A stretch of DNA of 64,000 nt from Bacteroidota bacterium (GTDB lineage Bacteria > Bacteroidota > Bacteroidia > Bacteroidales > UBA10428), in NCBI GenBank assembly GCA_016699695.1, contig CP065006.1:3229435-3293434 (forward strand). Direction: 5' to 3'. Every line of letters starts with the position of its first letter. Position 1 is the first letter of the stretch. The notes under the pieces were generated by a model. That model saw only the letters and a list, made by a program, of their open reading frames with translations. It had not been told where the DNA came from and made no database searches. Both the position numbers and the translations under genes were made by a program. Below are positions 4,056-57,826 of this stretch, piece by piece.

Positions 4056-4913
4056 TTATTTTAAACTAAAATCGGCAGGAAACTCATAGCTGGTTTCGAG
4101 CTTTTTCAGCATATCTTTAAAAAATTCTAATCCTGTATTTTTATCCAAACGCATCCAGCGCTCTATGATAGCCAGTTTAATTAAAAACGTAAATAGTTTT
4201 TCTACACTGAAATAGTGAAAAAACGATTGTTCATCAAGAAGTTCCCAACGAATGGTATCAATTCGTTTTTCCTGTTCGAAAAGCTCATTTGTTTCCAAAG
4301 CCCTGAATATGGCTTCGGAATAAGGAAGCTCATCGGAATCTAATCCAAAATCACGGGCAGAGCTTCGAATGAGCTTATCTTGTATTTCATCATTGCCTAC
4401 TAACTGAGTTTCGATTGTTAGGCTGTTCTCTCGGCATTTGTATGCTGTGAGCACATTTCCGAGCTTTTGTTCAAAGAGGATCCAGGCTTGTACAAACTTG
4501 TTGGGCACTTGCAAAGCATGCTGGAAATAGAGTTCGGTAAGTTGTAAATCCCAACTTTTGTTGGGTATTATTGCCTGCTCGGCCTTGTAGGCATCGATAA
4601 AAAGCGGCAGGTAAGAAGGGCACTTAAAGGGCAGTGAATCGTATGATGCATCTTTTGCAGCAGCCAACAATTGCTCCAGCATTTCGGCACTCAGGTTACC
4701 CGATTCTGCATGGGGTTCGTCGGATCCTTTTAACCTGTTCAGAAGGTTCTGATGATCAAATGGCCAGAAGTACAGACGGATCAAATCAAAATCTTCTACT
4801 GGCAAGTGCTCCGCCAAAAATGACCGGTATTCGACTGGCGAAAGGATCATTTTTGTGTCATCCAGCAATATATCTGGTAATCCGGCAACCAGGTAATAGT
4901 ATTGTCGGCTCAT
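4056..4913 (-). CDS. DUF2764-family protein occupying the subunit C slot of the V-ATPase operon
   Basis: 285-aa ORF between subunits E and A with 8-10 nt gaps. The start MSRQYYYLVAGLPDI is the conserved N-terminus I associate with DUF2764 in Bacteroidota V-ATPase operons. Confidence 0.75.
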   Translation of the reverse strand: MSRQYYYLVAGLPDILLDDTKMILSPVEYRSFLAEHLPVEDFDLIRLYFWPFDHQNLLNRLKGSDEPHAESGNLSAEMLEQLLAAAKDASYDSLPFKCPSYLPLFIDAYKAEQAIIPNKSWDLQLTELYFQHALQVPNKFVQAWILFEQKLGNVLTAYKCRENSLTIETQLVGNDEIQDKLIRSSARDFGLDSDELPYSEAIFRALETNELFEQEKRIDTIRWELLDEQSFFHYFSVEKLFTFLIKLAIIERWMRLDKNTGLEFFKDMLKKLETSYEFPADFSLK

Positions 4914-18107: not shown

Positions 18108-18836
18108 CTAATAAATGTTGTTAAGAATTAACATCTCTCTGATTTCTTTGTTGCTAAGTGCTTTTACATTAGTAACAATAAAATCGTTGTAGAGAAAATT
18201 TCCAAGTTGGTTGCATTCGCAAATTATGGATTTAAACAACTGCTGAAGCGGGATATTAAGCGGGATTAAGCAAAGGAGAGAGGCAAATTCCCCTTCAAAA
18301 ACTGAATCTTCAAGTTCAGCATTGTATTGCGAGAGAGCATAATTCACTTCTTTATGAATAATCAACTGTTGAATTGGATCAAGACTTTTACCATAAGGAG
18401 TAAAAAGCACAATGAAATAGCGAAGTTTAAGGCCTTTTCCTCCTAAAGCACTTGTTATTAATACTTTACTTTCGTTGAGTAAATCACTCTCTAGGTGTAA
18501 ACGGCTTTGTTGCAAGGCCAGGCAAGCCCAGTGATACAGTTTAATATTGGGTTGTTTCGAATATTTTTCTATTGTTCTATAGGCCTCAATACTGCTAATC
18601 GAGGCTAACTCGATAAGTTTACGCTTTTTTTTGTCCAATGACATTTCGAGGTCAAAGAGATTGTCTTTGTCCCGCAGAATTTCTTCTTCCGATTTGAATT
18701 TGCTTATTTTCCTCGAACACTCGAAATATTCCATCTGAAGGTCTGAGTCGATGTTTTCTTCCAGAATGCTGATGTCCATTTGATCCATTCCCAGGAAATC
18801 ATGCAGGTGGTCATATATGTTTTCATGCGTGCTCAC
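18108..18836 (-). CDS. hypothetical protein
   Basis: 242-aa uninterrupted ORF lying 22 nt upstream of the YkoF-like gene on the same strand. It has no signal peptide and I recognised no motif. Confidence 0.5.
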   Translation of the reverse strand: MSTHENIYDHLHDFLGMDQMDISILEENIDSDLQMEYFECSRKISKFKSEEEILRDKDNLFDLEMSLDKKKRKLIELASISSIEAYRTIEKYSKQPNIKLYHWACLALQQSRLHLESDLLNESKVLITSALGGKGLKLRYFIVLFTPYGKSLDPIQQLIIHKEVNYALSQYNAELEDSVFEGEFASLLCLIPLNIPLQQLFKSIICECNQLGNFLYNDFIVTNVKALSNKEIREMLILNNIY

Positions 18837-19187: not shown

Positions 19188-19760
19188 TTGGTGGAAAGTA
19201 AAAAGCACGAACTGCTGCTGCGAGGGATAAAAAACCGCGATACACAAACTCTTAAGGCAGTGTACAAAGAGTTTTACCCTAAAGTTGCCGGTTTTATTGC
19301 CGGTAAAGGTGGGAGTGCAGACGATGCTAAAGATATCTTTCAGGAATCGCTCATGGTAATTTACAAACTTAGCTTAACAGATCAATTTACCATTGAAACC
19401 GATTTTGGAAGTTACCTGATAGGCATAGCCAAACGAATATATTTCAAACAATTACGACAAAAAGAAATTCATCATCGCTTTGTGGATGGATCGGAGAAAA
19501 CTTTTTCTGAGGATCATCCGTCTGATGTGGAAATTGAGAATGAGATTGAGCAGCATTTAATGCGTAAGTACCTTTTAGAGTTGGGCGAAATTTGTCGAAA
19601 AATACTGCTTTGGTCAGCCAGTGGAGTAAATAATGATGAAATTGCTGAGAAATTAGGGTATAAGAGCGAAAAAATTGTGCGTACAAAAAAACACAAATGC
19701 AAGAGCAGTTTAATTTCCTTAATTAAAGCCGATCCTTATTTTAAGGGTAAAAAGAGTTAA
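19188..19760 (+). CDS. ECF-type RNA polymerase sigma-70 family factor
   Basis: 190-aa ORF with region 2 (TLKAVYKEFYPKVAGFI...DAKDIFQESLMVIY...SYLIGIAKRIYFKQLR) and a region 4 HTH (CRKILLWSASGVNNDEIAEKLGYKSEKIVRTKKHKC). Only TTG (19188) or GTG (19191) start codons are available. Confidence 0.8.
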   Translation: MVESKKHELLLRGIKNRDTQTLKAVYKEFYPKVAGFIAGKGGSADDAKDIFQESLMVIYKLSLTDQFTIETDFGSYLIGIAKRIYFKQLRQKEIHHRFVDGSEKTFSEDHPSDVEIENEIEQHLMRKYLLELGEICRKILLWSASGVNNDEIAEKLGYKSEKIVRTKKHKCKSSLISLIKADPYFKGKKS

Positions 19761-19773
19761 TAGAGTCTTCTCT

Positions 19774-22548
19774 TTAATTTCTTTTTATCTTGAAGAATAA
19801 AAATCCTGCAAAAAGTATCATCGTAATGCCTCCGAAAATCCACCATGGTGACCGATAAACCGGATCTGCATTACCGATTAAGATGTAAGAAGACCAAAAA
19901 AATGGATGCTTGTATTGCTCCTGAGCGCTTTTTAGAAAATTGAGCTTTGCAAGACGCAAAGCCTCTGATTTGGATTTGCTTTTTAAAAGGTTTTTATAAA
20001 AATAATGCATCAAAGTTTTTCCCGATTCATCTTCTACTCTCCACAAGGTTATAACCAGACTTGGGCATCCGGCATAAAAAAATCCACGCGACAGACTCAT
20101 CACTCCTTCACCATTTTTAAGCTCTCCATGCCCCGAATTGCATGCGCTTAATACGGTGAGCTGTGCTTGCAGTTTTAATGAAAAAAGTTCGTTAGTATTC
20201 AAAAATCCATTGTCGTTGGTCAAGTTATTGTCTGCAAAAACCAATTTCGAAAACAATGGGTTTTTATCGTCGATAAGAGTGTGCATGGCCAAATGCAGAA
20301 TATCATAATTATTGGCAATCTCCAGGAAATTTTCTTTGGTTGCATCTTTTCCTAATGAACTGTTACCTCGTGTAAGTTTGCATACCATCAAAGCCTCTTC
20401 GAGGGCAAACGGCAATGGGAGCAGGTAATTTCGATAGTTTCTCACCTTATATTCATCGGTATTTTTTGCTTGCTGGCTAATTCTGGCAGAATAATCGGGC
20501 GCAACAGACAGGGTCTTATTCCATAATTTCTTACCTCCTCTGCCTAGCATTTCGGAATAAATCGAGGATGAATAGGCATAAGATATGGTATAATTGTAAA
20601 CCAGATAATTGAGGTTGTTAAAAGATTTGATGGGTAAGGCACTAGGTTTATCGACAAGCGCTTCAAAAGGAATATAGGAGATAAGTCCATCCGGAATTAT
20701 TACCAGGTTTTTTTTCAGCTTATCTTGATTCACTTTACTTAAAAGCTGTTGATATAGAAAAAACGCTCTTTTGTAGTACAAGCTATAAGTTGAATGGTTT
20801 TGACCTGAAAAATCAAAATTTTTAAACTCGTTGATATAGTTTCTAAGGCTGTCTTTTAGTGCATTGTTTAACTGGGTGCGATAAAAATATACCTCTTTTC
20901 GATTAATCACAAAGAGAAACAAACTCGTGTCGCTCAGGCTATATTCAAGCAAGGTTGTATTCCTATCGAGAGACGATTGCAGCGAGGGAATTGTAGAAAG
21001 ATTGGTTTTGTATTTTAGTGAGTAATATTCCGGAAAGTCTGAATCGAGTGTGTTTTTGAGCAATTCATATTGTCTGCTGAAGTTAAAGAGGTAGCTTTTC
21101 CACACATCAAGTTTAACCTGATCAGGCTTTAATTGTATGCTTTCTTCATATACTTTCTCGTTGTAAAATGCGATTTCACGTTTCAACCTGCTTTCTTTTT
21201 CTATTAGTGAATCGGGTATTCCTGCAAATTTTTTGGCTTTTTCTTCGCTCAATACTCCCAACAGCACCGAAGATTTACTTTGTTCAGCAAAATAGAATGC
21301 CTCTTCGAGGTATTGATATTGCCCGGTTACTGAGTATAATCTTTCAGCACAATCGAGACCCTTACTGTATACTTGACTTTCTTTGTCAGACAGGTATAGC
21401 TTGCTTTCTACCGATAAATACCCCTGCCTGATTTGGTGAATGACAAGCGCCAGCTCATGAAGGTTTTTGAGTGCAAATTCGAGGTATAAAAAATTCTTTT
21501 TCTGGGCGTACCAGGCAATATAGGTATCAGATAAAGTATTCAGTAAGCTTATTGTGTGAAGCAATGATCGATGCTGAATTTTAAGGGTATCGTTACCATT
21601 TTGATCCTGCAGGTATTTAAGTGCCATTTGATAATATGAAACTGCTTTTTCAAAATCATTCCTCACTTTCCAATAATTGCCATTAAGAACCATTATATCG
21701 AAGTAATACTTTGAATCGATGGACGATTGAATGTAAATAGATTCCGCTGACCTGATCGCTTTAAGAGCCAGTTCAGGCTGGTTAGTGCTCAAGTAATACT
21801 CAGCTAAGTGCTTGTATGAATCGCAATGTAGCTGAGGAGAATGATAATTGTGTTTATCGAATAATAAGAGACTTTGTTGGATAAAAAAGAAACTGCTATC
21901 TGCCATTTTTCGATTTTTAAAGCTTATTGCGGCCGTAATGTAGATATCATGCAGGGTTATGTACTGCTGAAGGTTGTGTCGCGAGAATTCACTAATGGCC
22001 AGGTTACTGAGCCGGGAGGCTTCTGAGTAATTCTTCCGGCTGTTTTCGAGCAATGCAAAGCGATTCAAGGTTTCTATTTTACGAAGGATGGCTTCTGTGG
22101 AATTCAAATTACCAAGTAGCTTCAAAGCCTCATCAAAGTATTCCACAGCCAGCGTAAAGTCACCCTTATGGCGGTATGCATTTCCCATGTTCGAATAAAG
22201 GTTAGCCATAGATAAGGCCGGGGCATCATTTAACATATAAATTTTCCTGGCACGGTTGAAATAATCTAATCCATTGTCGAAATGCCATTGATTTATGCAT
22301 AAAACGCCAAGGTTATTTAAATCGTGGGCAATATTTAAATGATTGGGTGGATAGAGTTGGAGCGATAATTCTAGTGTTTGCTTCAGAAGTGCTTCCGCTG
22401 TTATAAAATCGCCCGTGATAAATGCTTCCACACCTCTGTTGTTAAGAGTTTTGTTAGAATCTTCCAACGCACTAACTGGATTATCAGCTGGCTGACTTTT
22501 TAAACACTCGGCTGCAAAAAGTATCAAAATGATTAAGTGCAATTTCAT
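19774..22548 (-). CDS. exported TPR-repeat CHAT-domain (caspase-like) protease with a C-terminal membrane anchor
   Basis: 924-aa ORF with a signal peptide MKLHLIILILFAAECLKS. About 400 aa are TPR-like repeats (for example NLYSNMGNAYRHKGDFTLAVEYFDEALKL). The C-terminal CHAT domain carries His (ILHLAMHT) and Cys (LTVLSACNSGHG) dyad motifs. A terminal hydrophobic helix WWIFGGITMILFAGFLFF is followed by KIKRN. Confidence 0.85.
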   Translation of the reverse strand: MKLHLIILILFAAECLKSQPADNPVSALEDSNKTLNNRGVEAFITGDFITAEALLKQTLELSLQLYPPNHLNIAHDLNNLGVLCINQWHFDNGLDYFNRARKIYMLNDAPALSMANLYSNMGNAYRHKGDFTLAVEYFDEALKLLGNLNSTEAILRKIETLNRFALLENSRKNYSEASRLSNLAISEFSRHNLQQYITLHDIYITAAISFKNRKMADSSFFFIQQSLLLFDKHNYHSPQLHCDSYKHLAEYYLSTNQPELALKAIRSAESIYIQSSIDSKYYFDIMVLNGNYWKVRNDFEKAVSYYQMALKYLQDQNGNDTLKIQHRSLLHTISLLNTLSDTYIAWYAQKKNFLYLEFALKNLHELALVIHQIRQGYLSVESKLYLSDKESQVYSKGLDCAERLYSVTGQYQYLEEAFYFAEQSKSSVLLGVLSEEKAKKFAGIPDSLIEKESRLKREIAFYNEKVYEESIQLKPDQVKLDVWKSYLFNFSRQYELLKNTLDSDFPEYYSLKYKTNLSTIPSLQSSLDRNTTLLEYSLSDTSLFLFVINRKEVYFYRTQLNNALKDSLRNYINEFKNFDFSGQNHSTYSLYYKRAFFLYQQLLSKVNQDKLKKNLVIIPDGLISYIPFEALVDKPSALPIKSFNNLNYLVYNYTISYAYSSSIYSEMLGRGGKKLWNKTLSVAPDYSARISQQAKNTDEYKVRNYRNYLLPLPFALEEALMVCKLTRGNSSLGKDATKENFLEIANNYDILHLAMHTLIDDKNPLFSKLVFADNNLTNDNGFLNTNELFSLKLQAQLTVLSACNSGHGELKNGEGVMSLSRGFFYAGCPSLVITLWRVEDESGKTLMHYFYKNLLKSKSKSEALRLAKLNFLKSAQEQYKHPFFWSSYILIGNADPVYRSPWWIFGGITMILFAGFLFFKIKRN

Positions 22549-22742
22549 TCTGAAGAAATGAATAGGTAGATGAATAACATGAAAGTACTAAAATTTATTC
22601 AATTTAATATTCTAATAATCAACAAATTAATAAATAGGTGTTGTTTTTTTTTATTTTTTTCATTAGAAACCGGTGACATTTTAGTGTCCAGTGGTACTTA
22701 ATAGTAAAACAATGAATTATTATTCACTTATACATAAAAGCA

Positions 22743-22877
22743 ATGAAACTTTTTAACAAATCTTCAGAAAGAAAAAGCAGCGATTTTAATCTGGCTCAAA
22801 AGCAAGTATTAAGTGTAAAAGAATTAATGACTATACGCGGTGGCGATGAGCACGGTGGTATGATCATAAGAAAATAA
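22743..22877 (+). CDS. 44-aa peptide precursor with a double-glycine (bacteriocin/pheromone-type) leader
   Basis: Hand translation gives MKLFNKSSERKSSDFNLAQKQVLSVKELMTIRGG-DEHGGMIIRK, with stop TAA at 22875..22877. Residues LSVKELMTIRGG match the GG-leader consensus LSxxELxxIxGG at every position. It is too short for the supplied ORF track. Confidence 0.6.
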   Translation: MKLFNKSSERKSSDFNLAQKQVLSVKELMTIRGGDEHGGMIIRK

Positions 22878-22894
22878 TATCCAAATAGGCATTC

Positions 22895-22980
22895 AAATAT
22901 CCCAAAGCGGGTTTAATTTAACCTGGTTTTAACGGCACTCATTCCCTTAGAATATAATGTACCCCGCTTTGGTGATATTT
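22895..22980 (+). repeat. structured element A: 17-bp stem enclosing the conserved 18-mer TGGTTTTAACGGCACTCA
   Basis: The left arm aaatatcccaaagcggg (22895..22911) pairs with the right arm cccgctttgg(t)gatattt (about 22963..22980) with one bulge. The loop carries the 18-mer at 22924..22941. It starts 18 nt after the peptide stop codon. Confidence 0.55.
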
Positions 22981-23126
22981 GGAAAAATGGTCCAACTTTT
23001 TTTTGAGAAAGTTTGACTTAAAAAGTGGGATCAAATAACTTGGGAAACCAATTTGGCGGTTGTAAGCATTAAAGTTTAATACGTAATAGTTAGTAAAAAA
23101 ATGGAAAAATAAATTCCAACCTTCCC

Positions 23127-23195
23127 GGGCGGGACAAAGCTCTTTTGGTTTTGACGGCACTCAATATACCTCTCTTATCTTCTTTTGTTCCGCCC
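23127..23195 (+). repeat. structured element B: 13-bp stem enclosing the conserved 18-mer TGGTTTTGACGGCACTCA
   Basis: The left arm gggcgggacaaag (23127..23139) pairs with the right arm cttttgttccgccc (23182..23195), including two G-T wobbles that work only on the plus strand. The 18-mer at 23146..23163 differs from copy A at one base. In both copies the spacer from the 18-mer to the right arm is 20-21 nt (21 nt in A, 20 nt in B). Confidence 0.55.
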
Positions 23196-23378
23196 ACTTT
23201 TTTATACTTCTGAATATAGCATACAGATATAAAAGATACATAGATATTATTGTCTACTGAAACCTTAACCTTCTATTCTTTTACTGGTAACCCCAGGTAA
23301 TACGTGGATATATTTCTTTATTTTGCTCCCGAAAAATTTTTATGGGGTGCATTGGTGAATAACTGAACCCAAATTATT

Positions 23379-24140
23379 ATGGCTAAAGAACTGGATTACA
23401 CTCAATTTATTGAGCGATACCTGCAACAAGAAATGAGCCCAGCTGAAAAAGTATGGTTTGAAAAGGAATTGCAGGGAAACTCATTGTTACAGGATGAATT
23501 GCTCTTTTACCGAAAGGTAAACCAGGTGCTTGCTGAAAAAGAACTGGTCGATTTTAAGTTGCAGCTGGATGCAATTCACAGAGAAATTATACAAACTTCA
23601 GTTGGAGGTCAGCACTATATCAGACAATACAGAAAAAAGATTAACCTGCTGGCCGGAAGTGTGATGGCAGCTTCTGTCGTATTGAGTTTATATTTTCCAA
23701 ACCGTAAGATATCCGATCAGAATCTTTACAATCGCTATTTTGAACCAGCTTCCTTTTCAGTAAGTTACCGCGATGCCAGCGAGCAAGACAGAATGCTGAA
23801 GGAGGCTATGCAGTTGTACGAAAGTAAGCAGTATTCAGAAGCAATCAGTCATTTCGAAAAAATCATGATCATTGAACCTAACAAATATGGGATAAATCTT
23901 TATGCTGGGATAGCCCATATGGAATTGGCACAATACCCCCAGGCTATTCTTCGGTTCAACACGATTTTAACTCAGGATTATGGCCCATTTTCCGAATCGG
24001 CTAGCTGGTATTTGGGGCTTTGTTATTTGTATTCCAACGAGAAAACAAAGGCAAAAAATCTGTTCGAAGGTTTGATGCAATCCGACGGATATTACAAGCG
24101 CGATGCCCACCGTATACTTAAGCATATGAAAGGTAAATAG
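23379..24140 (+). CDS. single-pass membrane TPR protein, anti-sigma-factor-like
   Basis: 253-aa ORF with a soluble helical N-domain (YTQFIERYLQQEMSPAEKVWFEKELQGNSLLQDELLFYRKV) and one TM segment (LLAGSVMAASVVLSLYF). The C-terminus has TPRs (EAMQLYESKQYSEAISHFEKIM; YAGIAHMELAQYPQAILRFNTIL; WYLGLCYLYSNEKTKAKNLFEGL). There is no zf-HC2 motif, so the anti-sigma role is inferred from architecture and context. Confidence 0.6.
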   Translation: MAKELDYTQFIERYLQQEMSPAEKVWFEKELQGNSLLQDELLFYRKVNQVLAEKELVDFKLQLDAIHREIIQTSVGGQHYIRQYRKKINLLAGSVMAASVVLSLYFPNRKISDQNLYNRYFEPASFSVSYRDASEQDRMLKEAMQLYESKQYSEAISHFEKIMIIEPNKYGINLYAGIAHMELAQYPQAILRFNTILTQDYGPFSESASWYLGLCYLYSNEKTKAKNLFEGLMQSDGYYKRDAHRILKHMKGK

Positions 24141-24230
24141 TTTGATTGGAATTAGCCTTATACCAGATATTTATTAACGGGACAAATGTCTATTGCTTTA
24201 AATTGAAACAATTCTCAAAAATGATGTGAG

Positions 24231-25148
24231 ATGAACCCTATAAGGATGATCCAGGAATGGATCAAGGCATTTATGCCAAAACATCGGATTATAAGCGATT
24301 ACAATCAAATGGTAAGCCGGTTAAAACAACTTGAAATGCAAGTTGCACAAAGTTCACAGCAATTGGAGCTGGCAAAGGCAAGCTTCCTGAAAAACATCTA
24401 CCATGAAATTCGCACGCCCCTTAATTCCATAATAGGGTTTACAAATCTGCTTGATAATAAACACCTACTTGCTCCTGAAGAAAGAGAAGAATATACTAAC
24501 CTTATCAATGTAAATAGCCGTAAGTTTTTAAGCCTACTTGACGACATTATTCAAGCATCTCTGCTTGAAGCCGGTATGATAAAGATTAAGCCCGAACCTG
24601 TTTGTTTGGGCGAATTCTTTGATGAAAACCATAGTTTTTATTCTATCCGCCGACATACCCAGGAAAAGAATGCCATTGCACTTTTGCTAACGGTAGAAGA
24701 AGACATAAAGCAAAAAAGCTTTGTTTTTGACCGTTACCGAATAGCACAAGTGCTTACTCAATTAGTCGATAATGCGCTGAAGTATACTGATAAAGGAGTG
24801 GTGGAATATGGTTGCACAATTCAGAATGAACGTCTGGAGTTCTTCGTGAAAGACAATGCAATACCTATACTAATGCCTCAAAAGAGATTGCTGTTTAAAA
24901 AGTTCTCGAAATTAGAGGTATCAAAAACAAATGATGGCGGCTTAGGTTTAGGTTTGTCTATTTGCAAAGATTTGCTCCAATTAATGGAAGGAGATATTCT
25001 TGTAGAATCAAATCATGGACATGGAAACACCTTTATTTTTTCTATACCTGCCATTATCTCGAAGGATGAGAACAATTTGATAACTGAGCCAATAAAAGAA
25101 TCACGCATACATTTTTTTCAAAGAGCAACTACATATCGGGCTGTGTAA
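24231..25148 (+). CDS. cytoplasmic histidine kinase lacking a sensor domain (degenerate G1 box)
   Basis: 305-aa ORF with an N-terminal coiled coil, H-box FLKNIYHEIRTPLNSIIGF, N-box LVDNALKYT and G2 GGLGLGLSICK. Where DxGxG is expected the sequence reads VKDNAIPI. Confidence 0.75.
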   Translation: MNPIRMIQEWIKAFMPKHRIISDYNQMVSRLKQLEMQVAQSSQQLELAKASFLKNIYHEIRTPLNSIIGFTNLLDNKHLLAPEEREEYTNLINVNSRKFLSLLDDIIQASLLEAGMIKIKPEPVCLGEFFDENHSFYSIRRHTQEKNAIALLLTVEEDIKQKSFVFDRYRIAQVLTQLVDNALKYTDKGVVEYGCTIQNERLEFFVKDNAIPILMPQKRLLFKKFSKLEVSKTNDGGLGLGLSICKDLLQLMEGDILVESNHGHGNTFIFSIPAIISKDENNLITEPIKESRIHFFQRATTYRAV

Positions 25149-25160
25149 TTTGTATAATAA

Positions 25161-28100
25161 TTAACCAAGCGAATGCTCTTTTCTTGGCAACGTGAAAGAG
25201 AATGTAGTTCCCTTTCCCAGTTCACTATCGACCATTAACTCGCCTTGGTTTTTTTCAATAAACTCTTTGCAGATTATTAAACCTAAGCCAGTACCGTTTT
25301 CGCCTGCGGTACCGGTGGTAGAGAAATATTCGTCGATTCGGAAAAGTTTTTTGATATTTTCCTGCGATATTCCAATTCCGGTATCTCTTATTGCAATCAG
25401 GCATTTATCCTGCGAGATATCTGAGCAACTAATCGTGACAATTCCATTGTTTGCTGTAAATTTTATAGCATTACTCACAAGGTTACGAATAATAAGATTT
25501 ACCATATTGAAATCGGCCCATGCCTTTCCACTGCATTCCATTTTTGTTTTGATGGCAATGCTTTTTTTCTCAGCATTGCCAGTACTTAGAATAACAATCT
25601 GTTGAATTATTTCGTGCAATTGTATGTGGTCTGGTGTATACTTGATACGCTCAGTTTGGGTGCGAGCCCATTGAAGGAGATTCTCTAGCAGGTTATATGC
25701 ACTCTCTGAAGAAGTTTTAATCATACCCAAGAGATCAAGGCGCTGTTTCTCTTCAAAATCTTCAAAATTCCGCATGAGCAATTCCGAGAAGCCAAAAATG
25801 GCCTGGAATGGATTTTTTAAATCATGGGCAATTATAGAAAAGAATTTATTTTTTGTTGCATTTAGTTCCTCCAGTCGGGCATTTGTTTTTTTCAAGATAT
25901 CAGACTGCCGGTTTAACTCTTCGGCCTGTATCTGAATTTTTTCCTGCCTTTCCTCCAGTAATGTATTTACTTCTTTCAAACTTTCCGCTTGCTCAATTAA
26001 TTGCTTTTCAGTGTTTTTTTGCTTAGTAATATCCCGGCCAATGCCCACAATACCCATAATTTTACCATCGACATCTTTAAAAGGTACTTTGGTTGTTGAA
26101 ACTACTTTTTCCCTTCTTTCTTCATCAAAGCCAATTTCTTCTTTGTTAATCATGGCTTTACCCGTGCGCATAATCCTAACCTCGTCGTTGAAGTATTCTT
26201 GGGCTGCTTCTTTTGAAGGTGCAAGGTCAAAATCGGTTTTCCCAATGATATCGTCAAGGTTGTCGGTTTGCATAGTATCGAGCATTCGCTTATTCACAGT
26301 AATAAAGCGGCTTTCGGCATCTTTTATATAGATAAAGTCAGGCATGTTATCGATCAGGGTACGTAAAAGCGAACGTTCCTTTTCAATCATTTTATTTTGT
26401 TCTTCCAGCCATTCCGATTGTTTAAGTATTTCTTCCGAACGTTCCTCCAGCAATTGGTTGACTTCTTTAAGGTCTTCGGCTTGCTGTTCGAGCTGCTGTT
26501 GGTAATTTTTAAGTTCGGTGATGTCTTTTGTAATACCAACCAGTCCTAATATTCGCCCATCTTCGTCGAAATAGGGTACCTTGGTTACCGTCCGGAATAT
26601 CTTTTCTCCATCGTCAAGAACACGCAATTCTTCTTTGTTTATTACTGCCTTTTTTTGTGCAATAATTTGTTTTTCCAATTCGATGAACCTTTGCGCCTGG
26701 TCCTTTGGATAGAAGTCAAGATCGCTTTTTCCTTCAAGTTCATAGGACGAGTTAATTCCAAGTTTTTCCATCAGTGACTTGTTGGCCAGTACAAAGCGGC
26801 TTTGGGTGTCTTTGATGTAAATAGAATCGGGGATATTGTCGATAAGCACTCTTAGGAGGTTTCTTTCGTTTTCAACTATTTTATTCTGGGTTGCCAGTTC
26901 TGAGGATTGCTGTTGAATTTCTTCCTGACGTTCTTCTAGTACTACATTCACCTCTTTGAGGTAATCGGCCTGCTCCTGTAGTTTGATTTCGGTTTCTTTC
27001 AGAGATGTAATGTCTTTTCCAATTCCTACAATACCTTCTATTTCCCCATCGGCATTTCTGTATGGCACTTTGCTTGTTAGCAAATACATGAGGTTCCCGT
27101 TTTTATCCAGACTAGTTTCCTCAATGCCAATCATTGGGCTGCCTTTCGAAATAATCCGCTGATCGTCGGAAAAAAATTTCTTGGCCATTTCTTTCGGATA
27201 GATGTCAAAATCAGATTTTCCTTTAATTTCTTCCTCCGAAGCGATGTTCAAGGAATCGAGCATGTACTGATTGGCTGTAATAAAGGTGCTGTTTTTATCT
27301 TTGATGTAAACAAAATCAGGCAGGTTGTCGATCAGGGTGCGCAGCAGTTTTCGCTCACTTTCCAGTATTTTATTTTGTTCGCCTAATTCATCGGCCTGTT
27401 GGTTAATTTCTTCCTGTCTTTCTTCGAGCAATACATTAACCTCTTGCAGGTTTTGTGCCTGTTCAATTAACTTTTCTTCAGTTTCCTTAAGCTTGGTAAT
27501 ATCACGGCCAATGCCTACCAATCCTAGAATTTTTCCGTTTTCATCTTTAAATGGCACTTTAGTTGTAGAGCGAACCCTGATATTTCCTTCTTTGTCGAAG
27601 CCTATTTCTTCTTTATTAATCACCGACTGGCCGGTGTCCATTATAAATTTATCGTCCTTATAAAAGATATCAGCAATTTCTTTTGGATAGTAATCGAAAT
27701 CGGATTTTCCGAGAATTTCACTTCTCGATTTGGCTTTGGTAATCTCAATCTGTGCGATATTGGCATCTAAAAAGCAACATTCGCTATCTTTTATATAGAT
27801 GGCATCCGGCATATTATCTATCAAGGTACGTAGCAAAAGTCTTTCTTTTTCAATTTCCTCATTTTTCTGTGTCAACAACTCGTTGTAAAGATTTTGCTGA
27901 GTAGTGTCAGAAATTATTCCTAAAAGGCCTATTAATTTGCCATTTCTATTTTTAAGAGGGTATTTTCTTGTAACTGTGAATTTGAGTATTCCGTTGTTCT
28001 CGCTTCGCTGTTCCCGAAGCAATTCAGGCACATCATTGTATAGTATTTGCTGGTCTTCGTAATTGTATTTGGCAGCAATACTTTCTTCGTAAAGGTCCGA

Positions 28101-28403
28101 ATCGTGCTTACCTATTAATTCTTTCGGTGATGATTTTTTCAGTAAGCTGGCAAACTTTTCGTTTACCACGATATACTTTCCATAGGGGTCCTTAATAAAA
28201 ATGCTATCGGGAAGGTTGTTTAATAAGGTAATGAAGGGTACTGTTTCCTCGGGATTCAATTCGCTAAGGTCGCGTAGAATGCCCATTGGACCTTTGAAAT
28301 ATTTTAAATACAAGTAAATTCCAAGTGCTGTAATCAGCGCACCTGTCATAAAAGGAATAACGAATTGAAAGCTCAGGGTTGAAAAATAGGTAAGTGAAAT
28401 CAC
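25161..28403 (-). CDS. membrane-anchored multi-PAS sensor histidine kinase
   Basis: 1080-aa ORF with an N-terminal TM helix and five PAS modules separated by coiled-coil linkers. It then has H-box FFSIIAHDLKNPFQAI, N-box LVSNAIKFT, G1 IRDTGIGI and G2 GTGLGLIICKEF. Confidence 0.9.
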   Translation of the reverse strand: MISLTYFSTLSFQFVIPFMTGALITALGIYLYLKYFKGPMGILRDLSELNPEETVPFITLLNNLPDSIFIKDPYGKYIVVNEKFASLLKKSSPKELIGKHDSDLYEESIAAKYNYEDQQILYNDVPELLREQRSENNGILKFTVTRKYPLKNRNGKLIGLLGIISDTTQQNLYNELLTQKNEEIEKERLLLRTLIDNMPDAIYIKDSECCFLDANIAQIEITKAKSRSEILGKSDFDYYPKEIADIFYKDDKFIMDTGQSVINKEEIGFDKEGNIRVRSTTKVPFKDENGKILGLVGIGRDITKLKETEEKLIEQAQNLQEVNVLLEERQEEINQQADELGEQNKILESERKLLRTLIDNLPDFVYIKDKNSTFITANQYMLDSLNIASEEEIKGKSDFDIYPKEMAKKFFSDDQRIISKGSPMIGIEETSLDKNGNLMYLLTSKVPYRNADGEIEGIVGIGKDITSLKETEIKLQEQADYLKEVNVVLEERQEEIQQQSSELATQNKIVENERNLLRVLIDNIPDSIYIKDTQSRFVLANKSLMEKLGINSSYELEGKSDLDFYPKDQAQRFIELEKQIIAQKKAVINKEELRVLDDGEKIFRTVTKVPYFDEDGRILGLVGITKDITELKNYQQQLEQQAEDLKEVNQLLEERSEEILKQSEWLEEQNKMIEKERSLLRTLIDNMPDFIYIKDAESRFITVNKRMLDTMQTDNLDDIIGKTDFDLAPSKEAAQEYFNDEVRIMRTGKAMINKEEIGFDEERREKVVSTTKVPFKDVDGKIMGIVGIGRDITKQKNTEKQLIEQAESLKEVNTLLEERQEKIQIQAEELNRQSDILKKTNARLEELNATKNKFFSIIAHDLKNPFQAIFGFSELLMRNFEDFEEKQRLDLLGMIKTSSESAYNLLENLLQWARTQTERIKYTPDHIQLHEIIQQIVILSTGNAEKKSIAIKTKMECSGKAWADFNMVNLIIRNLVSNAIKFTANNGIVTISCSDISQDKCLIAIRDTGIGISQENIKKLFRIDEYFSTTGTAGENGTGLGLIICKEFIEKNQGELMVDSELGKGTTFSFTLPRKEHSLG
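25886..27845 (-). repeat. intragenic tandem array of four roughly 490-nt PAS plus coiled-coil modules
   Basis: Protein repeats begin at about aa 187, 351, 514 and 677 with ER(L/K/N/S)LLR(T/V)LIDN(M/L/I)PD..YIKD. Each ends in (E/D)IT.LK..E..L.EQA..L.EVN.LLEER.EEI. The units are also recognisably similar at DNA level. Confidence 0.8.
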
Positions 28404-28615: not shown

Positions 28616-29089
28616 ATGAGTCTCATGCAAGAAATTTTCGGTTCGGCATTCGAACTGTACGGTTTTTTAAGTCAGAAATCGAAATCGAGAAACGCCACTA
28701 AGCGCATGCTCCTGCGCGAGATCCGGAACAATATAAAACGACTGGAGCATCGAAATCGCAAAGGGGTGAATAGACACATACTTATTCAAAAACTGGAAAA
28801 TGCCAGTTTGATTGCTGCCTTGGATCAAGATTTTTCTTTTAATAAACTATGCCCGGGGCAAAAAGTGAATCCGGCGATGCTCACTCAATTTGCTCCTGCG
28901 GAAAAGTATGCCGGATGGGATGCTAACCGTTTGATGAATAGCATTGACGAAAAGATAGTTCAGCTTAAAGAACTTTCGGAATTGTATTCCCCCGAAGGAA
29001 TTAAAGCCATTAACCTGACTCAAAGGTTAAACAACCTTTTTGCACAGCTATTACTCGTATCGGTGCTTATTAAGCAGGCTGAGTCATAA
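28616..29089 (+). CDS. hypothetical protein
   Basis: 157-aa ORF that is basic and helical (RMLLREIRNNIKRLEHRNRKGVNRH). No family was recognised and there is no signal peptide. Confidence 0.45.
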   Translation: MSLMQEIFGSAFELYGFLSQKSKSRNATKRMLLREIRNNIKRLEHRNRKGVNRHILIQKLENASLIAALDQDFSFNKLCPGQKVNPAMLTQFAPAEKYAGWDANRLMNSIDEKIVQLKELSELYSPEGIKAINLTQRLNNLFAQLLLVSVLIKQAES

Positions 29090-56050: not shown

Positions 56051-57826
56051 ATGAATTCAGAAACTCCCAGGAAAAAAATTAGTCTTTCGGGACTAAAAGA
56101 ACTCTTTAAACTATATCGCTTTATACGGCCCTACCGCAGGGAATATGCCCTTGGCATGCTTCTGCTGCTGATTAGTAGCGCGGCTAGTCTTGCTTTTCCT
56201 AAATTGCTTGGCGATCTGGTGGACATCGGTCAGGCCGGCATGATCAAGGAGCAGATTAACCGAATAGGATTGTTGTTGGTTGTAGTGTTGCTTTTACAGG
56301 CAACGGCTTCTTACTTCAGGATATTATTGTTTGTAAGGGTAACAGAAAAAACCCTCGCCGATTTACGGCGCAAGGTTTATAACCATTTAATTCGTTTACC
56401 GCTTAAATTTTTTCAGGGACGAAGGGTGGGCGAGCTGAATAGTCGCCTATCGGCTGATATTTCCCTGCTTCAGGATGCTATGACCACTACTCTGGCAGAA
56501 TTTATCAGGCAGATTTTGATTATTGTGGGTGGCATAAGCCTGTTGATGTTTACTTCTATGAAGCTTACCCTTTTTATGTTGGCGGTTTTGCCAGTGGTAA
56601 TGGTGCTGGTGATATTTTTTGGACGCTACATACGAAAGTTGTCGAAAGAAGCCCAGAACCAGGTGGCCGAATCGAATGTGGTGGTGGAAGAAACTCTACA
56701 AGGTATTCAATCGGTAAAATCATTTACCAACGAATATCACGAAATGGATCGCTATCGGGAAATAACCGGAAAGATTGCCCAAACCGGTATACAGAACGGA
56801 CGCATGCAGGGTGCTTTTTCGTCCTTCATCATACTAGGTCTCTTCGGGGCCATGGTGGCAGTTATCTGGAAAGGAGCTGACCTCTTAGGAAAAGGAGAAC
56901 TGCAAACCGGAGAGCTGTTTTCGTTTATTATCTATTCAGGCTTTATTGGTGGCACCATTGGTGGCCTGGCAAGTGTATTGGGTCGTGTGCAGAAATTTGT
57001 GGGAGCCACAGAAAATTTACTCGAAATCTTGGATGAAAAGGAAGAAACGGTTCAGGAAAATCTTGCATTGGTTCCCGAGCAAACCATCAAAGGTCGTATA
57101 CGTTTTGATAACCTGCGTTTCGAATACCCTTCGCGCTTAGGTACGGATGTGTTAACTGAAATTAGTTTTTCTGTCGAGCCCAATAACCTTATTGCCCTGG
57201 TAGGGCCCAGTGGTGCCGGCAAATCGACTCTTGTTTCGCTATTGATGCGCCTTTACGAACCCAGTTCGGGCCGTATTCTGTTTGATGGGAAAGAGTCGAC
57301 ACAGTATTCCTTAACGGCATTGCGTTCGCAAATGGCTGTAGTGCCTCAAGATATCTTTTTGTTTGGAGGTACCATTGCCGAAAACATTGCCTATGGACGA
57401 TGGGGAGCCAGCCATGATGAGATTGTAGAGGCTGCTAAGCAGGCTAATGCCTGGCAATTTATTTCGGAAATGAAGGATGGACTGGAAACCCTTGTAGGCG
57501 AGCGGGGTACGCAATTATCCGGAGGTCAGAGGCAACGCATTGCCATTGCCCGTGCTTTGTTGAAAAACCCGCAGATACTCATTCTCGATGAGGCCACCTC
57601 CTCGCTCGATTCTGAATCGGAACGTCTGGTTCAGGAAGCTCTGGAAAAATTGATGCAGGGACGCACTTCTATTGTCATTGCGCACAGGCTGGCAACCATT
57701 CGCAGAGCCGATAATATTATTGTGCTCGACAAAGGTCGCATAGTTGAACAGGGTACCCACGAACACCTCATGAAGCTAGACAAGGGCGTTTACCGAGGTT
57801 TAAGTGAGCTCCAGTTTGCAGTGTAG
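56051..57826 (+). CDS. ABC transporter, fused permease/ATPase (MsbA/multidrug-exporter type)
   Basis: 591-aa ORF with a six-helix type-I exporter TMD. It has Walker A GPSGAGKST, signature LSGGQRQR and Walker B ILILDEATS. There is no N-terminal C39 peptidase domain. Confidence 0.9.
   Translation: MNSETPRKKISLSGLKELFKLYRFIRPYRREYALGMLLLLISSAASLAFPKLLGDLVDIGQAGMIKEQINRIGLLLVVVLLLQATASYFRILLFVRVTEKTLADLRRKVYNHLIRLPLKFFQGRRVGELNSRLSADISLLQDAMTTTLAEFIRQILIIVGGISLLMFTSMKLTLFMLAVLPVVMVLVIFFGRYIRKLSKEAQNQVAESNVVVEETLQGIQSVKSFTNEYHEMDRYREITGKIAQTGIQNGRMQGAFSSFIILGLFGAMVAVIWKGADLLGKGELQTGELFSFIIYSGFIGGTIGGLASVLGRVQKFVGATENLLEILDEKEETVQENLALVPEQTIKGRIRFDNLRFEYPSRLGTDVLTEISFSVEPNNLIALVGPSGAGKSTLVSLLMRLYEPSSGRILFDGKESTQYSLTALRSQMAVVPQDIFLFGGTIAENIAYGRWGASHDEIVEAAKQANAWQFISEMKDGLETLVGERGTQLSGGQRQRIAIARALLKNPQILILDEATSSLDSESERLVQEALEKLMQGRTSIVIAHRLATIRRADNIIVLDKGRIVEQGTHEHLMKLDKGVYRGLSELQFAV

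Follow-up and report, generated by a model that had tools for sequence, protein, structure and literature searches.

Among the described arrangements closest to the one reported here are the leaky terminators that follow bacteriocin and lantibiotic genes such as nisA and epiA, in which a G+C-rich stem and a U-tract lie after a small peptide gene and before accessory or regulatory genes, so that peptide mRNA would be expected to outnumber the downstream mRNA. The loops of intrinsic terminators are usually 3-8 nt long. In prgQ of Enterococcus faecalis pCF10 the efficiency of the IRS1 terminator, just 3' of a signalling-peptide gene, decides transcription into the downstream genes of the pheromone circuit, and its regulator is a counter-transcript, Anti-Q. 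Protein-dependent attenuators, which include the two-hairpin targets of ANTAR proteins, the RAT sites of BglG and LicT, and the sites of PyrR and TRAP, have a short conserved RNA sequence beside or within a terminator, in more than one copy, where binding of a factor would change the terminator. To our knowledge very few cis-regulatory RNAs have been described in Bacteroidota, and our literature search found no description of peptide-based cell-cell signalling in these bacteria.

The window, by which we mean the whole 64 kb stretch of DNA analysed, carries a gene cassette present in 15 of 15 orthologous loci from uncultured Bacteroidales/Bacteroidota, which form the sample; the cassette encodes an ECF sigma factor, a TPR-CHAT protease, a GG-leader peptide, an anti-sigma-like TPR protein and a histidine kinase. 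In the window the ECF-type sigma factor gene (TIGR02937, Sigma70_r2) lies on the plus strand at 19188..19760, and the gene for the TPR-CHAT protease-like protein (CHAT, E = 2e-59) lies on the minus strand at 19774..22548, divergent from the peptide gene. The latter is a plus-strand ORF at 22743..22877 encoding 44 aa with a double-glycine leader (…LMTIRGG/DEHGGMIIRK), and its orthologues have the GG leader followed by a tail of 9-17 aa at every locus. The anti-sigma-like protein (23379..24140, plus strand), which has 274 homologues and carries a helix region of the anti-sigma type at its N terminus together with a single transmembrane segment and a TPR domain, is encoded by the first gene 3' of the hairpins described below; the second downstream gene, conserved in the cassettes, specifies a soluble histidine kinase (HisKA + HATPase_c; 24231..25148, plus strand). 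A C39-peptidase ABC exporter and an HlyD-like gene are found within the cassette of seven related loci, and one locus, L044, has neither a hairpin element nor the HisKA kinase. The cassette looks like a peptide-pheromone circuit, in which the peptide is probably sensed by the cassette's own sigma/anti-sigma machinery; we found no published account of a Bacteroidetes double-glycine peptide/ECF system. There is a likeness, in gene context only, to DdvS/DdvA of Myxococcus xanthus, which the part of the published account considered here describes as an ECF sigma factor with a transmembrane anti-sigma factor bearing a periplasmic TPR-CHAT domain, so that an ECF sigma factor, a TPR anti-sigma factor and a TPR-CHAT caspase-like module share one locus (PMC11506125). 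Unlike the situation in that part of the account, the TPR-CHAT protein is separate here and a GG-leader peptide, an exporter and histidine kinases are added; RNA hairpins are not mentioned in it (PMC11506125).

Two long hairpins lie between the peptide gene and the anti-sigma-like gene. Element A (22895..22980, plus strand), recognized by direct reading, folding and comparison of eight loci, begins 18 nt past the peptide stop codon; its arms (5' AAATATCCCAAAGCGGG at 22895-22911 and 3' CCCCGCTTTGGTGATATTT at 22962-22980) form a stem of 17 bp with one bulged T around a loop of 50 nt, and its plus-strand RNA has a predicted fold of -32.2 kcal/mol (z -3.66). Element B (23127..23195, plus strand), recognized by direct reading, folding and a covariance model, sits 184 nt 5' of the anti-sigma-like start codon; its arms (5' GGGCGGGACAAAG at 23127-23139 and 3' TTTTGTTCCGCCC at 23183-23195) form a stem of 13 bp, with two G-T pairs and eight G-C/C-G pairs, around a loop of 43 nt, and the predicted fold is -22.4 kcal/mol (z -3.55) for plus-strand RNA against a z of only -1.67 for the minus strand. 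Sequence matching places one copy of a shared 18 nt motif in each loop, TGGTTTTAACGGCACTCA at 22924..22941 in A and TGGTTTTGACGGCACTCA at 23146..23163 in B, both on the plus strand. Both hairpins, the forms of their stems, the unrelated sequences of the A and B arms and the common 18-mer had been reported in the first-pass annotation, and direct reading bears all of them out. Its distances require correction: between the 18-mer and the 3' arm lie 20 nt (not 21) in A and 19 nt (not 20) in B; the B stem gives way to AC and six Ts (23198-23203), rather than by five Ts after 3 nt; and the run beyond A consists of eight Ts starting 17 nt after the stem (22998-23005), rather than nine at about 19 nt.

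The elements are conserved as structures across the orthologous loci, as the first-pass annotation had expected of a functional element with constant architecture and complementary arms. A B-type element is present in 15 of 15 cassettes that bear the element, lying 160-335 nt 5' of the anti-sigma-like ATG at every locus, and A is kept in 8 of the 15, each time alongside B; the more distant relatives have a single element. Where there is one element it starts 14-26 nt after the peptide stop, the position that A occupies in two-element loci, and the spacing from copy to copy ranges from ~135 to ~940 bp. In the B stem, over 14 loci, 93.5% of cells are paired, compared with at most 58% in slid controls, and double changes affect 6 of its 13 pairs; in the A stem the corresponding values are 81.5%, at most 44%, and 9 of 19 pairs. 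The shuffle test for B used five measures. For three of them (cells paired, cells with a double change and covariation score) not one of 500 shuffles came up to the real alignment, and for the number of pairs with a double change 9 of 500 did; since the 15 sampled loci belong to related bacteria, common descent inflates these statistics. Wobble pairs had been taken earlier to indicate plus-strand RNA, and the wider sample agrees: G·U/U·G pairs far outnumber A·C/C·A pairs (15 against 3 in B, 10 against 3 in A), so it is the plus-strand RNA that folds, in keeping with the poor minus-strand fold of B. A and B are thus a real conserved structured RNA of the plus strand.

The element is also dedicated to this cassette. 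The 18-mer has only two matches in the window at up to three mismatches on both strands, against a chance expectation of 0.07, and none of 100 shuffles of the window gave two. Covariance-model searches of the window and 16 related loci (~205 kb in total) detected no copy outside the peptide-to-anti-sigma spacer, and among 185,579 species genomes the 18-mer occurs in 33, about the chance level, with flanking arms only in two orthologous loci (L028 and L029). Matches to a 15-mer in viral contigs proved to be chance coding matches (for example, in a phage protein segment …PDGFNGT…), and model scores there did not exceed 24 bits, compared with 41-92 bits for true elements and 91 bits for the window copy of B under its covariance model R1. 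Rfam 15 returned only tRNA for the whole window at the gathering threshold, and with E up to 10 the window region and loci L038 and L037 gave unrelated weak matches with no family common to the loci; nor was the motif sequence found in the literature. The genome-wide repeat family entertained in the first-pass annotation therefore does not stand, with two copies in the window, none elsewhere in ~205 kb and a chance-level frequency of the 18-mer across genomes. Two of the conditions under which that annotation would have given up a dedicated role at this locus, a motif dispersed at unrelated loci and orthologous loci devoid of the structure, are thus answered in its favour. We give almost no credence to the related readings of a dispersed MITE- or REP-like repeat, an invertible-promoter switch or chance similarity, for which the inverted repeats around a shared core are the whole case: these matches are armless except in the two orthologues, the elements keep their place with respect to one pair of genes across 15 loci, and the G·U bias marks selection on RNA. 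For an inverton, moreover, the 43-50 bp between the arms fall below the ~100 bp or more of known examples, and there is no recombinase among the neighbouring genes.

Closer inspection of the tails separates the two elements. In B a run of six Ts, a candidate terminator U-tract supported by 14 loci, lies at 23198..23203 on the plus strand, 2 nt past the stem with AC between, and a T-rich tail follows the G+C-rich stem base by 0-3 nt in 14 of 14 aligned B-type elements, with eight Ts in L048. Element A has no U-tract directly 3' of its stem, and its tails are A-rich or mixed (GAAAAA, AAACGA and similar) in seven of eight loci. The two elements thus differ in kind: a terminator tail has been retained in B and lost in A. 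Element B accordingly has the G+C-rich stem and U-tract of an intrinsic terminator and lacks the short loop (~3-8 nt), the loops at other loci ranging from 33 to ~90 nt, far outside those of efficient intrinsic terminators, which counts against a terminator reading. The B stem is also near-invariant (GGCGAGAUAAAG/CUUUAUCUCGCC) between loci whose proteins are ~40% identical; on this comparison its conservation exceeds what a terminator appears to require and counts against a plain terminator. A standard terminator scan, with loops of 3-8 nt, detected nothing at this site, and a simple scan found no enrichment of canonical terminators in the window.

Comparison with the described systems sharpens this picture. 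Like the nisA- and epiA-type terminators, B places a G+C-rich stem and U-tract after a small peptide gene, here probably a highly expressed one, but in contrast to them it has a loop of 33 to ~90 nt with an invariant sequence and a G-depleted spacer, a stem that is near-invariant across distant loci, and a companion copy, A, without a U-tract. Like IRS1 of prgQ, B is a terminator-like element immediately 3' of a gene for a putative signalling peptide; unlike pCF10, the nine cassettes searched yielded no antisense or partner RNA, and the organisms and signalling proteins are unrelated. The resemblance to protein-dependent attenuators lies in the repeated, short conserved RNA sequence in a terminator-like element, but here there are no paired small hexaloop hairpins of the ANTAR type and no RAT-like hairpin over the 5' arm, the cassette has no ANTAR, CAT or PyrR-type gene, and the motif is unrelated and without an Rfam match.

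The promoters around the elements bear on how the downstream genes would be expressed. Upstream of the peptide gene, comparison of loci reveals a promoter-like motif at 22672..22700 on the plus strand, composed of GGTGACA (22672-22678), 16 nt and TACTTA (22695-22700); the arrangement GGTGACA-N16-TACTTAtTAATGAAAGC is common to 12 orthologous loci. It differs from the housekeeping type of Bacteroidetes and is likely to be a target of the ECF sigma factor, whereas the sigma gene itself has TAnnTTTG boxes, evident upstream of it in nine of ten loci. No conserved housekeeping TAnnTTTG box was found between B and the anti-sigma gene, an argument for read-through as the source of downstream expression. 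In the first-pass annotation it was suggested that the elements may determine how much peptide mRNA is made relative to downstream transcript, and this fits both the universal U-rich tail of B and the lack of a recognizable housekeeping promoter before the anti-sigma gene.

Our preferred reading, in which we place about half of our confidence, is that the element is an intrinsic terminator or attenuator with an oversized, sequence-specific loop that gates the anti-sigma and kinase genes following a pheromone-like peptide gene. On this view a single cis-acting RNA module, belonging to the 3' end of the peptide gene, would be present twice, as A and B, and its ancestral form would have been an intrinsic terminator, kept as B and as the sole copy in distant relatives. 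Most transcripts from the peptide promoter, probably dependent on the ECF sigma factor, would stop at B, and the fraction that reads through would provide for expression of the anti-sigma-like and kinase genes, as well as of the exporter genes in cassettes that have them, such that the element would fix or regulate the ratio of peptide to anti-sigma. Element A would be a tandem duplicate that has kept the loop motif and long stem and lost the U-tract, and might now be a 3' hairpin of the peptide mRNA that stabilizes it, directs its processing or binds the factor that would act at B. Even a constitutive leaky terminator would represent a large, sequence-specific, G-depleted loop design that standard predictors miss.

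The loop motif exceeds 18 nt and comprises two blocks (in A, UGGUUUUAAC as block 1 and CUCAUUCC as block 2, the latter extending to 22945), with a core, UGGUUUU-RAY-GGCAC, that is conserved as sequence; in the B loop positions G28-T32, A34 and G36-A39 (first-sequence numbering) are invariant in 14 loci, giving a GGU-UUU-A-GGCA core. The distance between the blocks and the size of the loop vary widely across loci. In the 3' half of the loop, after GGCAC, G makes up 3% and C 29% over 14 loci, compared with a local background of 16-20% G, and in the window this half contains a G-less, pyrimidine-rich tract, defined by composition, at 23164..23182 on the plus strand. The single A/G difference between the two 18-mers would be synonymous (TTA/TTG) in one frame; a small ORF in the loop was nevertheless rejected, there being no start codon and a 1 nt insertion in L042, and the motif is regarded as non-coding because the gaps between blocks are variable and not multiples of 3. 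An inner loop hairpin, GGUUUUGA-CGGCAC-UCAAUAAUC, that appeared in single-sequence folds was also discarded, as 67% of its cells pair, no better than in shuffles or slid controls. The 5' half of the loop would thus be a conserved single-stranded (Y)UGGUUUU-RAY-GGCAC-UCA and the 3' half a G-poor, C-rich spacer.

On the preferred reading such a loop is most simply taken as a docking sequence for a trans-acting protein or RNA that would alter long-range closure of the stem and so make read-through conditional; a protein-binding site in the loop had been offered as an alternative in the first-pass annotation. Tentatively, and with rather low confidence, we suggest that the hairpin-presented UGGUUUU-RAY-GGCAC docks an undescribed trans-acting factor and so makes both termination at B and the A-dependent fate of the peptide mRNA conditional. 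Candidates for such a factor are a small RNA or a response regulator that binds RNA and takes its input from the cassette's two orphan histidine kinases; no RNA-binding protein is recognizable among the cassette genes. If the suggestion is correct, Bacteroidota would have a new class of attenuator that depends on a factor, an RNA-level gate linking the output of the secreted double-glycine peptide with the stoichiometry of the ECF sigma/anti-sigma/TPR-CHAT system in Gram-negative anaerobes, and a factor that reads the loop would provide a new attenuation mechanism and a handle on the whole cassette.

The same features of the loop can be read in other ways. Transcript ends at B, or processing at A, could yield stable 3'-derived small RNAs whose loop acts as a seed for mRNAs encoded elsewhere in the genome, perhaps beyond the DNA sampled here, a reading that would account for a loop conserved as sequence without internal pairing, for the stem-plus-U-tail end of B, which is typical of small RNAs, and for the retention of the motif in A after loss of the terminator tail. 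We think it unlikely, given that no complement of the 18-mer occurs in the 64 kb window at up to three mismatches, that RNAduplex found no recurrent complementary site for the loop in nine cassettes, and that there is no conserved promoter directly 5' of B: an apparent duplicated remnant of the peptide promoter and 5' UTR (23058-23113) was matched by 102 of 500 shuffles and lies in a region unconserved in L029. Three possible partners of the loop within the cassettes, namely a conserved CCGAACCC ahead of the anti-sigma ATG, the 5' UTR of the peptide gene and the small hairpin h3 described below, were also considered and rejected, as each offers only 5-6 bp of pairing and none covaries.

Conserved unpaired nucleotides enclosed by a stem that also has the form of a terminator, ahead of regulatory genes, could suggest a riboswitch-like leader of the anti-sigma operon, with the loop as pocket and a ligand altering closure of the terminator stem; the B stem and U-tract would provide an expression platform at all loci. 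A multi-helix aptamer is missing, however, with no supported internal helices or junctions, the inter-block distance and loop size (33 to ~90 nt) are highly variable, and the gene context has nothing related to a ligand, so that this reading seems to us very improbable. In several sequences the C-rich loop tract can form pairs with the G-rich 5' arm while the 3' arm is still to be made, and an antiterminator of this kind is a possibility in some truncated folds, where it is weak (-6 to -9, against -17 to -23.5 kcal/mol for the full hairpin) and its register shifts between sequences; conserved extra copies of the B arms that might act as alternative partners were not found elsewhere in the loci.

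Strong sequence conservation without RNA pairing might alternatively reflect a role of the 18-mer as DNA, as an operator or promoter element for the downstream genes around which the inverted repeats form a terminator, and two copies plus a weakly similar GGTWATAC do lie in one intergenic region. This too is a reading with little to commend it in our estimate: the motif is not palindromic, the spacing of its copies varies from ~135 to ~940 bp, the sigma factor is the sole DNA-binding regulator encoded in the cassette, and alignments inspected by eye revealed no second promoter element at a fixed distance. Promoters inside the loop of the sigma-A (TTTG / TAnnTTTG, -33/-7), sigma-70-like and peptide-promoter-like types were sought by eye only and were unmatched, and a sigma-54 promoter (GG-N10-GC; TGGCAC-N5-TTGC) was set aside on like inspection for want of a second element at fixed spacing.

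The hairpin element is thus an RNA motif with covarying stems and an invariant loop at the junction of a peptide gene and sigma/anti-sigma machinery, and the covariance models R1 and R2 offer a means of annotating it in metagenomes. The difference in kind between A and B, the single-element relatives, the longer two-block motif and a third downstream hairpin are observations additional to those of the first-pass annotation. The last of these, h3, is a small hairpin (ACUGG-UAACC-CCAGG) with a conserved tail, GUAAUACG, found by alignment at 23283..23304 on the plus strand, ~85 nt 5' of the anti-sigma-like ATG. A non-housekeeping promoter may lie near h3, and would turn B into a plain insulator. 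The weakly similar third copy of the loop motif, GGTWATAC, follows h3 in the same intergenic region. A regular-expression match to h3 is present in 12 of 15 loci, and compensatory variants of its stem occur as CCGG/CCGG in L042, L043 and L048 and as CUGAC/GUCAG in L039.

The spacer between the peptide gene and the anti-sigma-like gene contains two plus-strand hairpins that belong to a real, conserved RNA element. Element A has a 17 bp stem with one bulged T (5' arm AAATATCCCAAAGCGGG, 22895–22911; 3' arm CCCCGCTTTGGTGATATTT, 22962–22980) and element B a 13 bp stem with two G-T pairs (arms GGGCGGGACAAAG, 23127–23139, and TTTTGTTCCGCCC, 23183–23195); the loop of each carries the 18-mer TGGTTTTRACGGCACTCA, read directly from the plus strand at 22924–22941 and 23146–23163. 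The 64 kb window contains no further match (3 or fewer mismatches, both strands); 0.07 are expected by chance, and two were reached in none of 100 shuffles. Folded as plus-strand RNA, A gives -32.2 kcal/mol (z = -3.66) and B -22.4 kcal/mol (z = -3.55), the minus strand of B reaching only z = -1.67. The first-pass annotation had described both hairpins and their common 18-mer, and they are present as it reported, although its numbers are slightly off: the spacers from 18-mer to 3' arm are 20 nt (A) and 19 nt (B) rather than 21 and 20, and the T-runs are indeed offset from the arms but consist of T6 starting 2 nt past B and T8 starting 17 nt past A, not five and nine Ts at 3 and about 19 nt.

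The hairpins lie in a gene cassette (19188–28403) that appears to be a so far undescribed Bacteroidales module for signalling by a secreted peptide, given the mature peptides of 9–17 aa past GG across loci and the C39 exporter. In the window, an ECF-type sigma factor gene (19188–19760, plus strand) and a TPR-CHAT protein gene (19774–22548, minus strand) are followed on the plus strand by the gene for a 44-aa peptide with a double-glycine leader (…MTIRGG/DEHGGMIIRK; 22743–22877), both hairpins, an anti-sigma-like single-pass membrane protein with a TPR domain (23379–24140) and a soluble histidine kinase (HisKA; 24231–25148), with a convergent gene for a 1080-aa multi-PAS kinase downstream; the cassette contains no response regulator. 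Metagenomic data contain 274 homologues of the anti-sigma-like protein (E ≤ 1e-10), and our comparison covers the window and the DNA of 15 further distinct loci from uncultured Bacteroidales and Bacteroidota, in which the order (FeoB), sigma →, ← TPR-CHAT, peptide →, element(s), anti-sigma-TPR →, kinase →, (C39-peptidase ABC exporter →, HlyD-like →), ← PAS kinase is conserved. Both A and B are present in eight loci (the window, L029, L028, L035, L038, L039, L040 and L047), a lone B-type element stands directly past the peptide gene in seven more distant ones (L037, L041, L042, L043, L045, L046 and L048), and L044, the most distant, is without the element. Two elements coincide with the absence of the exporter genes: the C39 ABC and HlyD-like genes are in the cassettes of all seven single-element loci and are missing from the two-element cassettes for which downstream DNA was fetched (the window, L038, L039, L040 and L047). 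No C39 exporter is found elsewhere in the 64 kb window, the ABC transporter at 56051–57826 lacking a C39 domain. Two ORFs with no Pfam matches (28616–29089 and 18108–18836) flank the cassette; L038 and L039 also have the 157-aa one beside the PAS kinase. In its proteins the cassette brings to mind DdvS/DdvA, an ECF sigma with a TPR-CHAT anti-sigma (PMC11506125), from which it differs in architecture.

The first-pass annotation had allowed that the hairpins might be members of a genome-wide repeat family and had proposed searching other genomes for the 18-mer. An exact-match scan of one genome per species (185,579 species) found it at 33 places, about the chance expectation; 31 of these are isolated hits in unrelated DNA, mostly coding, without complementary arms, and the other two are the Bacteroidales MAG loci L029 and L028, which have the arms and the gene order of the window, L029 with its two copies spaced about 220 bp, like those of the window. 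The search thus recovered orthologous loci and no repeat family. R1, a covariance model built on the B-type elements and run on both strands of the window and 16 related loci (205 kb), had no matches but the B and A elements between the peptide and anti-sigma genes, and we reject a repeat family on these grounds; the element is dedicated to one gene cassette. A looser 15-mer scan of viral contigs gave chance matches, several inside one conserved phage coding segment, scoring at most 24 bits against 41–92 bits for true elements.

The stems covary across loci. In the 14 sequences aligned to the B model, 93.5 % of cells are standard pairs, against at most 58 % when the partner is moved by 1–3 columns, and six of 13 pairs have changed on both sides. 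In 500 column shuffles, whose statistics are inflated because the loci are related by ancestry, the observed values for cells paired, double-change cells and covariation score were never reached, and that for pairs with a double change was reached nine times; despite this kinship, the stems are convincing in view of the slid controls and the large number of independent double changes. In A (eight sequences), 81.5 % of cells are paired against at most 44 % in the control, with double changes in nine of 19 pairs; the sequence of the outer stem (AAAUAUCCC/GG-U-GAUAUUU) is conserved and that of the inner stem varies freely, with compensation. The conserved architecture that had been read as a functional structure is therefore borne out, as RNA, and the explanation by a repeat, an inverton or chance is rejected as highly improbable by the copy-number, conservation and covariation data. 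Since G·U/U·G pairs outnumber A·C/C·A pairs (15 to 3 in B, 10 to 3 in A), the selected molecule is plus-strand RNA, the strand of the peptide and anti-sigma genes, as the G-T wobbles of B had already hinted. An operator or promoter acting at the DNA level is improbable, there being no partner element at a fixed spacing.

Conservation in the loop is at the level of primary sequence. In 14 loci the B-type loops have an invariant core, GGU-UUU-(R)A(Y)-GGCA, and L048 has a shortened motif (AUGGUUUGGCACAU) in a loop of about 90 nt; in A the motif is split into two blocks, YUGGUUUUAAC and CUCAUUCC, by gaps of varying length. These gaps are not multiples of three, the motif of L042 has a 1 nt insertion and a start codon is missing, which excludes a coding role. 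An inner loop hairpin, suggested by single-sequence folds, gets no support from the comparison of loci (67 % of cells paired, no better than shuffles), and with no supported internal structure a riboswitch-like sensor is very doubtful. That the hairpins give 3'-derived sRNAs with the loop as seed is unlikely, though less so, since the DNA sampled gave no target. In the B loop, the 3' half (23164–23182 and homologues) contains 3 % G and 29 % C over 323 nt from 14 loci, against a background of 16–20 % G, and is 9–37 nt long in the 14 aligned elements, the L048 loop being much longer; this near-absence of G recalls Rho-utilisation sites, or a spacer under selection to remain unpaired. Rfam gave no match for the element in three loci, the literature searched contained no mention of the loop motif, and neither source yielded a description of the element.

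Every B-type element has a T-rich tail within 0–3 nt (ACTTTTTT, TTTTTTCTTT and similar), and B, with its G+C-rich stem base, has the anatomy of an intrinsic terminator, loop size excepted; the short loop is a defining feature of the canonical form, and this is the one feature in which the element fails. B stands at a fixed position 160–335 nt upstream of the anti-sigma-like start, A lies just past the peptide stop codon, and A tails are A-rich or mixed in seven of eight elements. The B stem GGCGAGAUAAAG/CUUUAUCUCGCC retains the ancestral sequence and is almost identical between loci whose proteins are about 40 % identical. The simplest history would be a tandem duplication of the 3' module, after which the upstream copy, A, lost terminator function and kept the loop motif and long stem. 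A possible vestige of a duplicated promoter and 5' UTR upstream of B in the window had an alignment score that was not significant. The sequence at 22992–23002 (CCAACTTTTTT), offset 12 nt past A, resembles the B tail at 23193–23203 (CCCACTTTTTT), and AAAAAGTGGG (23020–23029) is complementary to both; neither feature is kept in L029, so the likeness is probably a leftover of duplication. A C-rich stretch, (A)AUAUCCCC, is conserved immediately 5' of the B-type stem (CTTCCC at 23121–23126 in the window, AATATCCCC in single-element loci), and in A it is now the outer 5' arm. L038 has two tandem peptide genes (4134–4528); a complete A element follows the second, and past the first there is just a fragment like block 2 of the A loop (gctcattctcaaa).

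The structure is solid and its gene context intriguing, and the data show strand, conservation, confinement to the cassette and terminator anatomy; the mechanism, with termination itself, read-through and any factor, is inferential. In the most likely reading, to which we give an even chance, the module closes the peptide gene as a terminator/attenuator with a large sequence-specific loop. Most transcripts would end at B, and the read-through fraction would express the anti-sigma-like protein and the kinase, as well as the exporter in loci that have one. Efficiency would be set, or controlled by a trans factor, through the unusually large loop and the invariant single-stranded sequence in it, and A might serve the 3' end of the peptide mRNA through stability, processing or binding of the same factor. 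Leaky terminators follow bacteriocin or lantibiotic precursor genes, and the IRS1 terminator sits past the prgQ peptide gene of pCF10; the element would work like the former and share a similar logic with the latter. It has no match among the described attenuator families (ANTAR, RAT, PyrR and TRAP).

Upstream of the sigma gene, nine of ten loci have a clear housekeeping -7 box of the Bacteroidetes type, TAnnTTTG (e.g. TATATTTG). The peptide gene has a different conserved motif, GGTGACA-N16-TACTTAtTAATGAAAGC (22672–22700), found in the extended form GGTGACA-N16-TACTTA(T)TAATGAAAGC in 12 loci; the ECF sigma of the cassette plausibly recognises it. From B to the anti-sigma-like gene there is no conserved housekeeping box, and the downstream genes therefore probably depend, at least in part, on read-through. 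The only conserved blocks in this spacer are CCGAAYCC, which in most loci precedes the anti-sigma-like start codon by 8–10 nt (ctgaaccc, 23360–23367, plus strand, just upstream of the ATG at 23379) and may be a translation-initiation element, and a third, small plus-strand hairpin, ACUGG-loop-CCAGG with the tail GUWAUAC(G) (23283–23304), about 70–180 nt upstream of that ATG. This hairpin was found by regular expression in 12 of 15 loci, a variant in L039 being seen by eye, and shows compensatory changes (CCGG/CCGG in L042, L043 and L048; CUGAC/GUCAG in L039). Its tail is weakly similar to block 1 of the A/B loop motif (L037: CCAGGUUUUACG).
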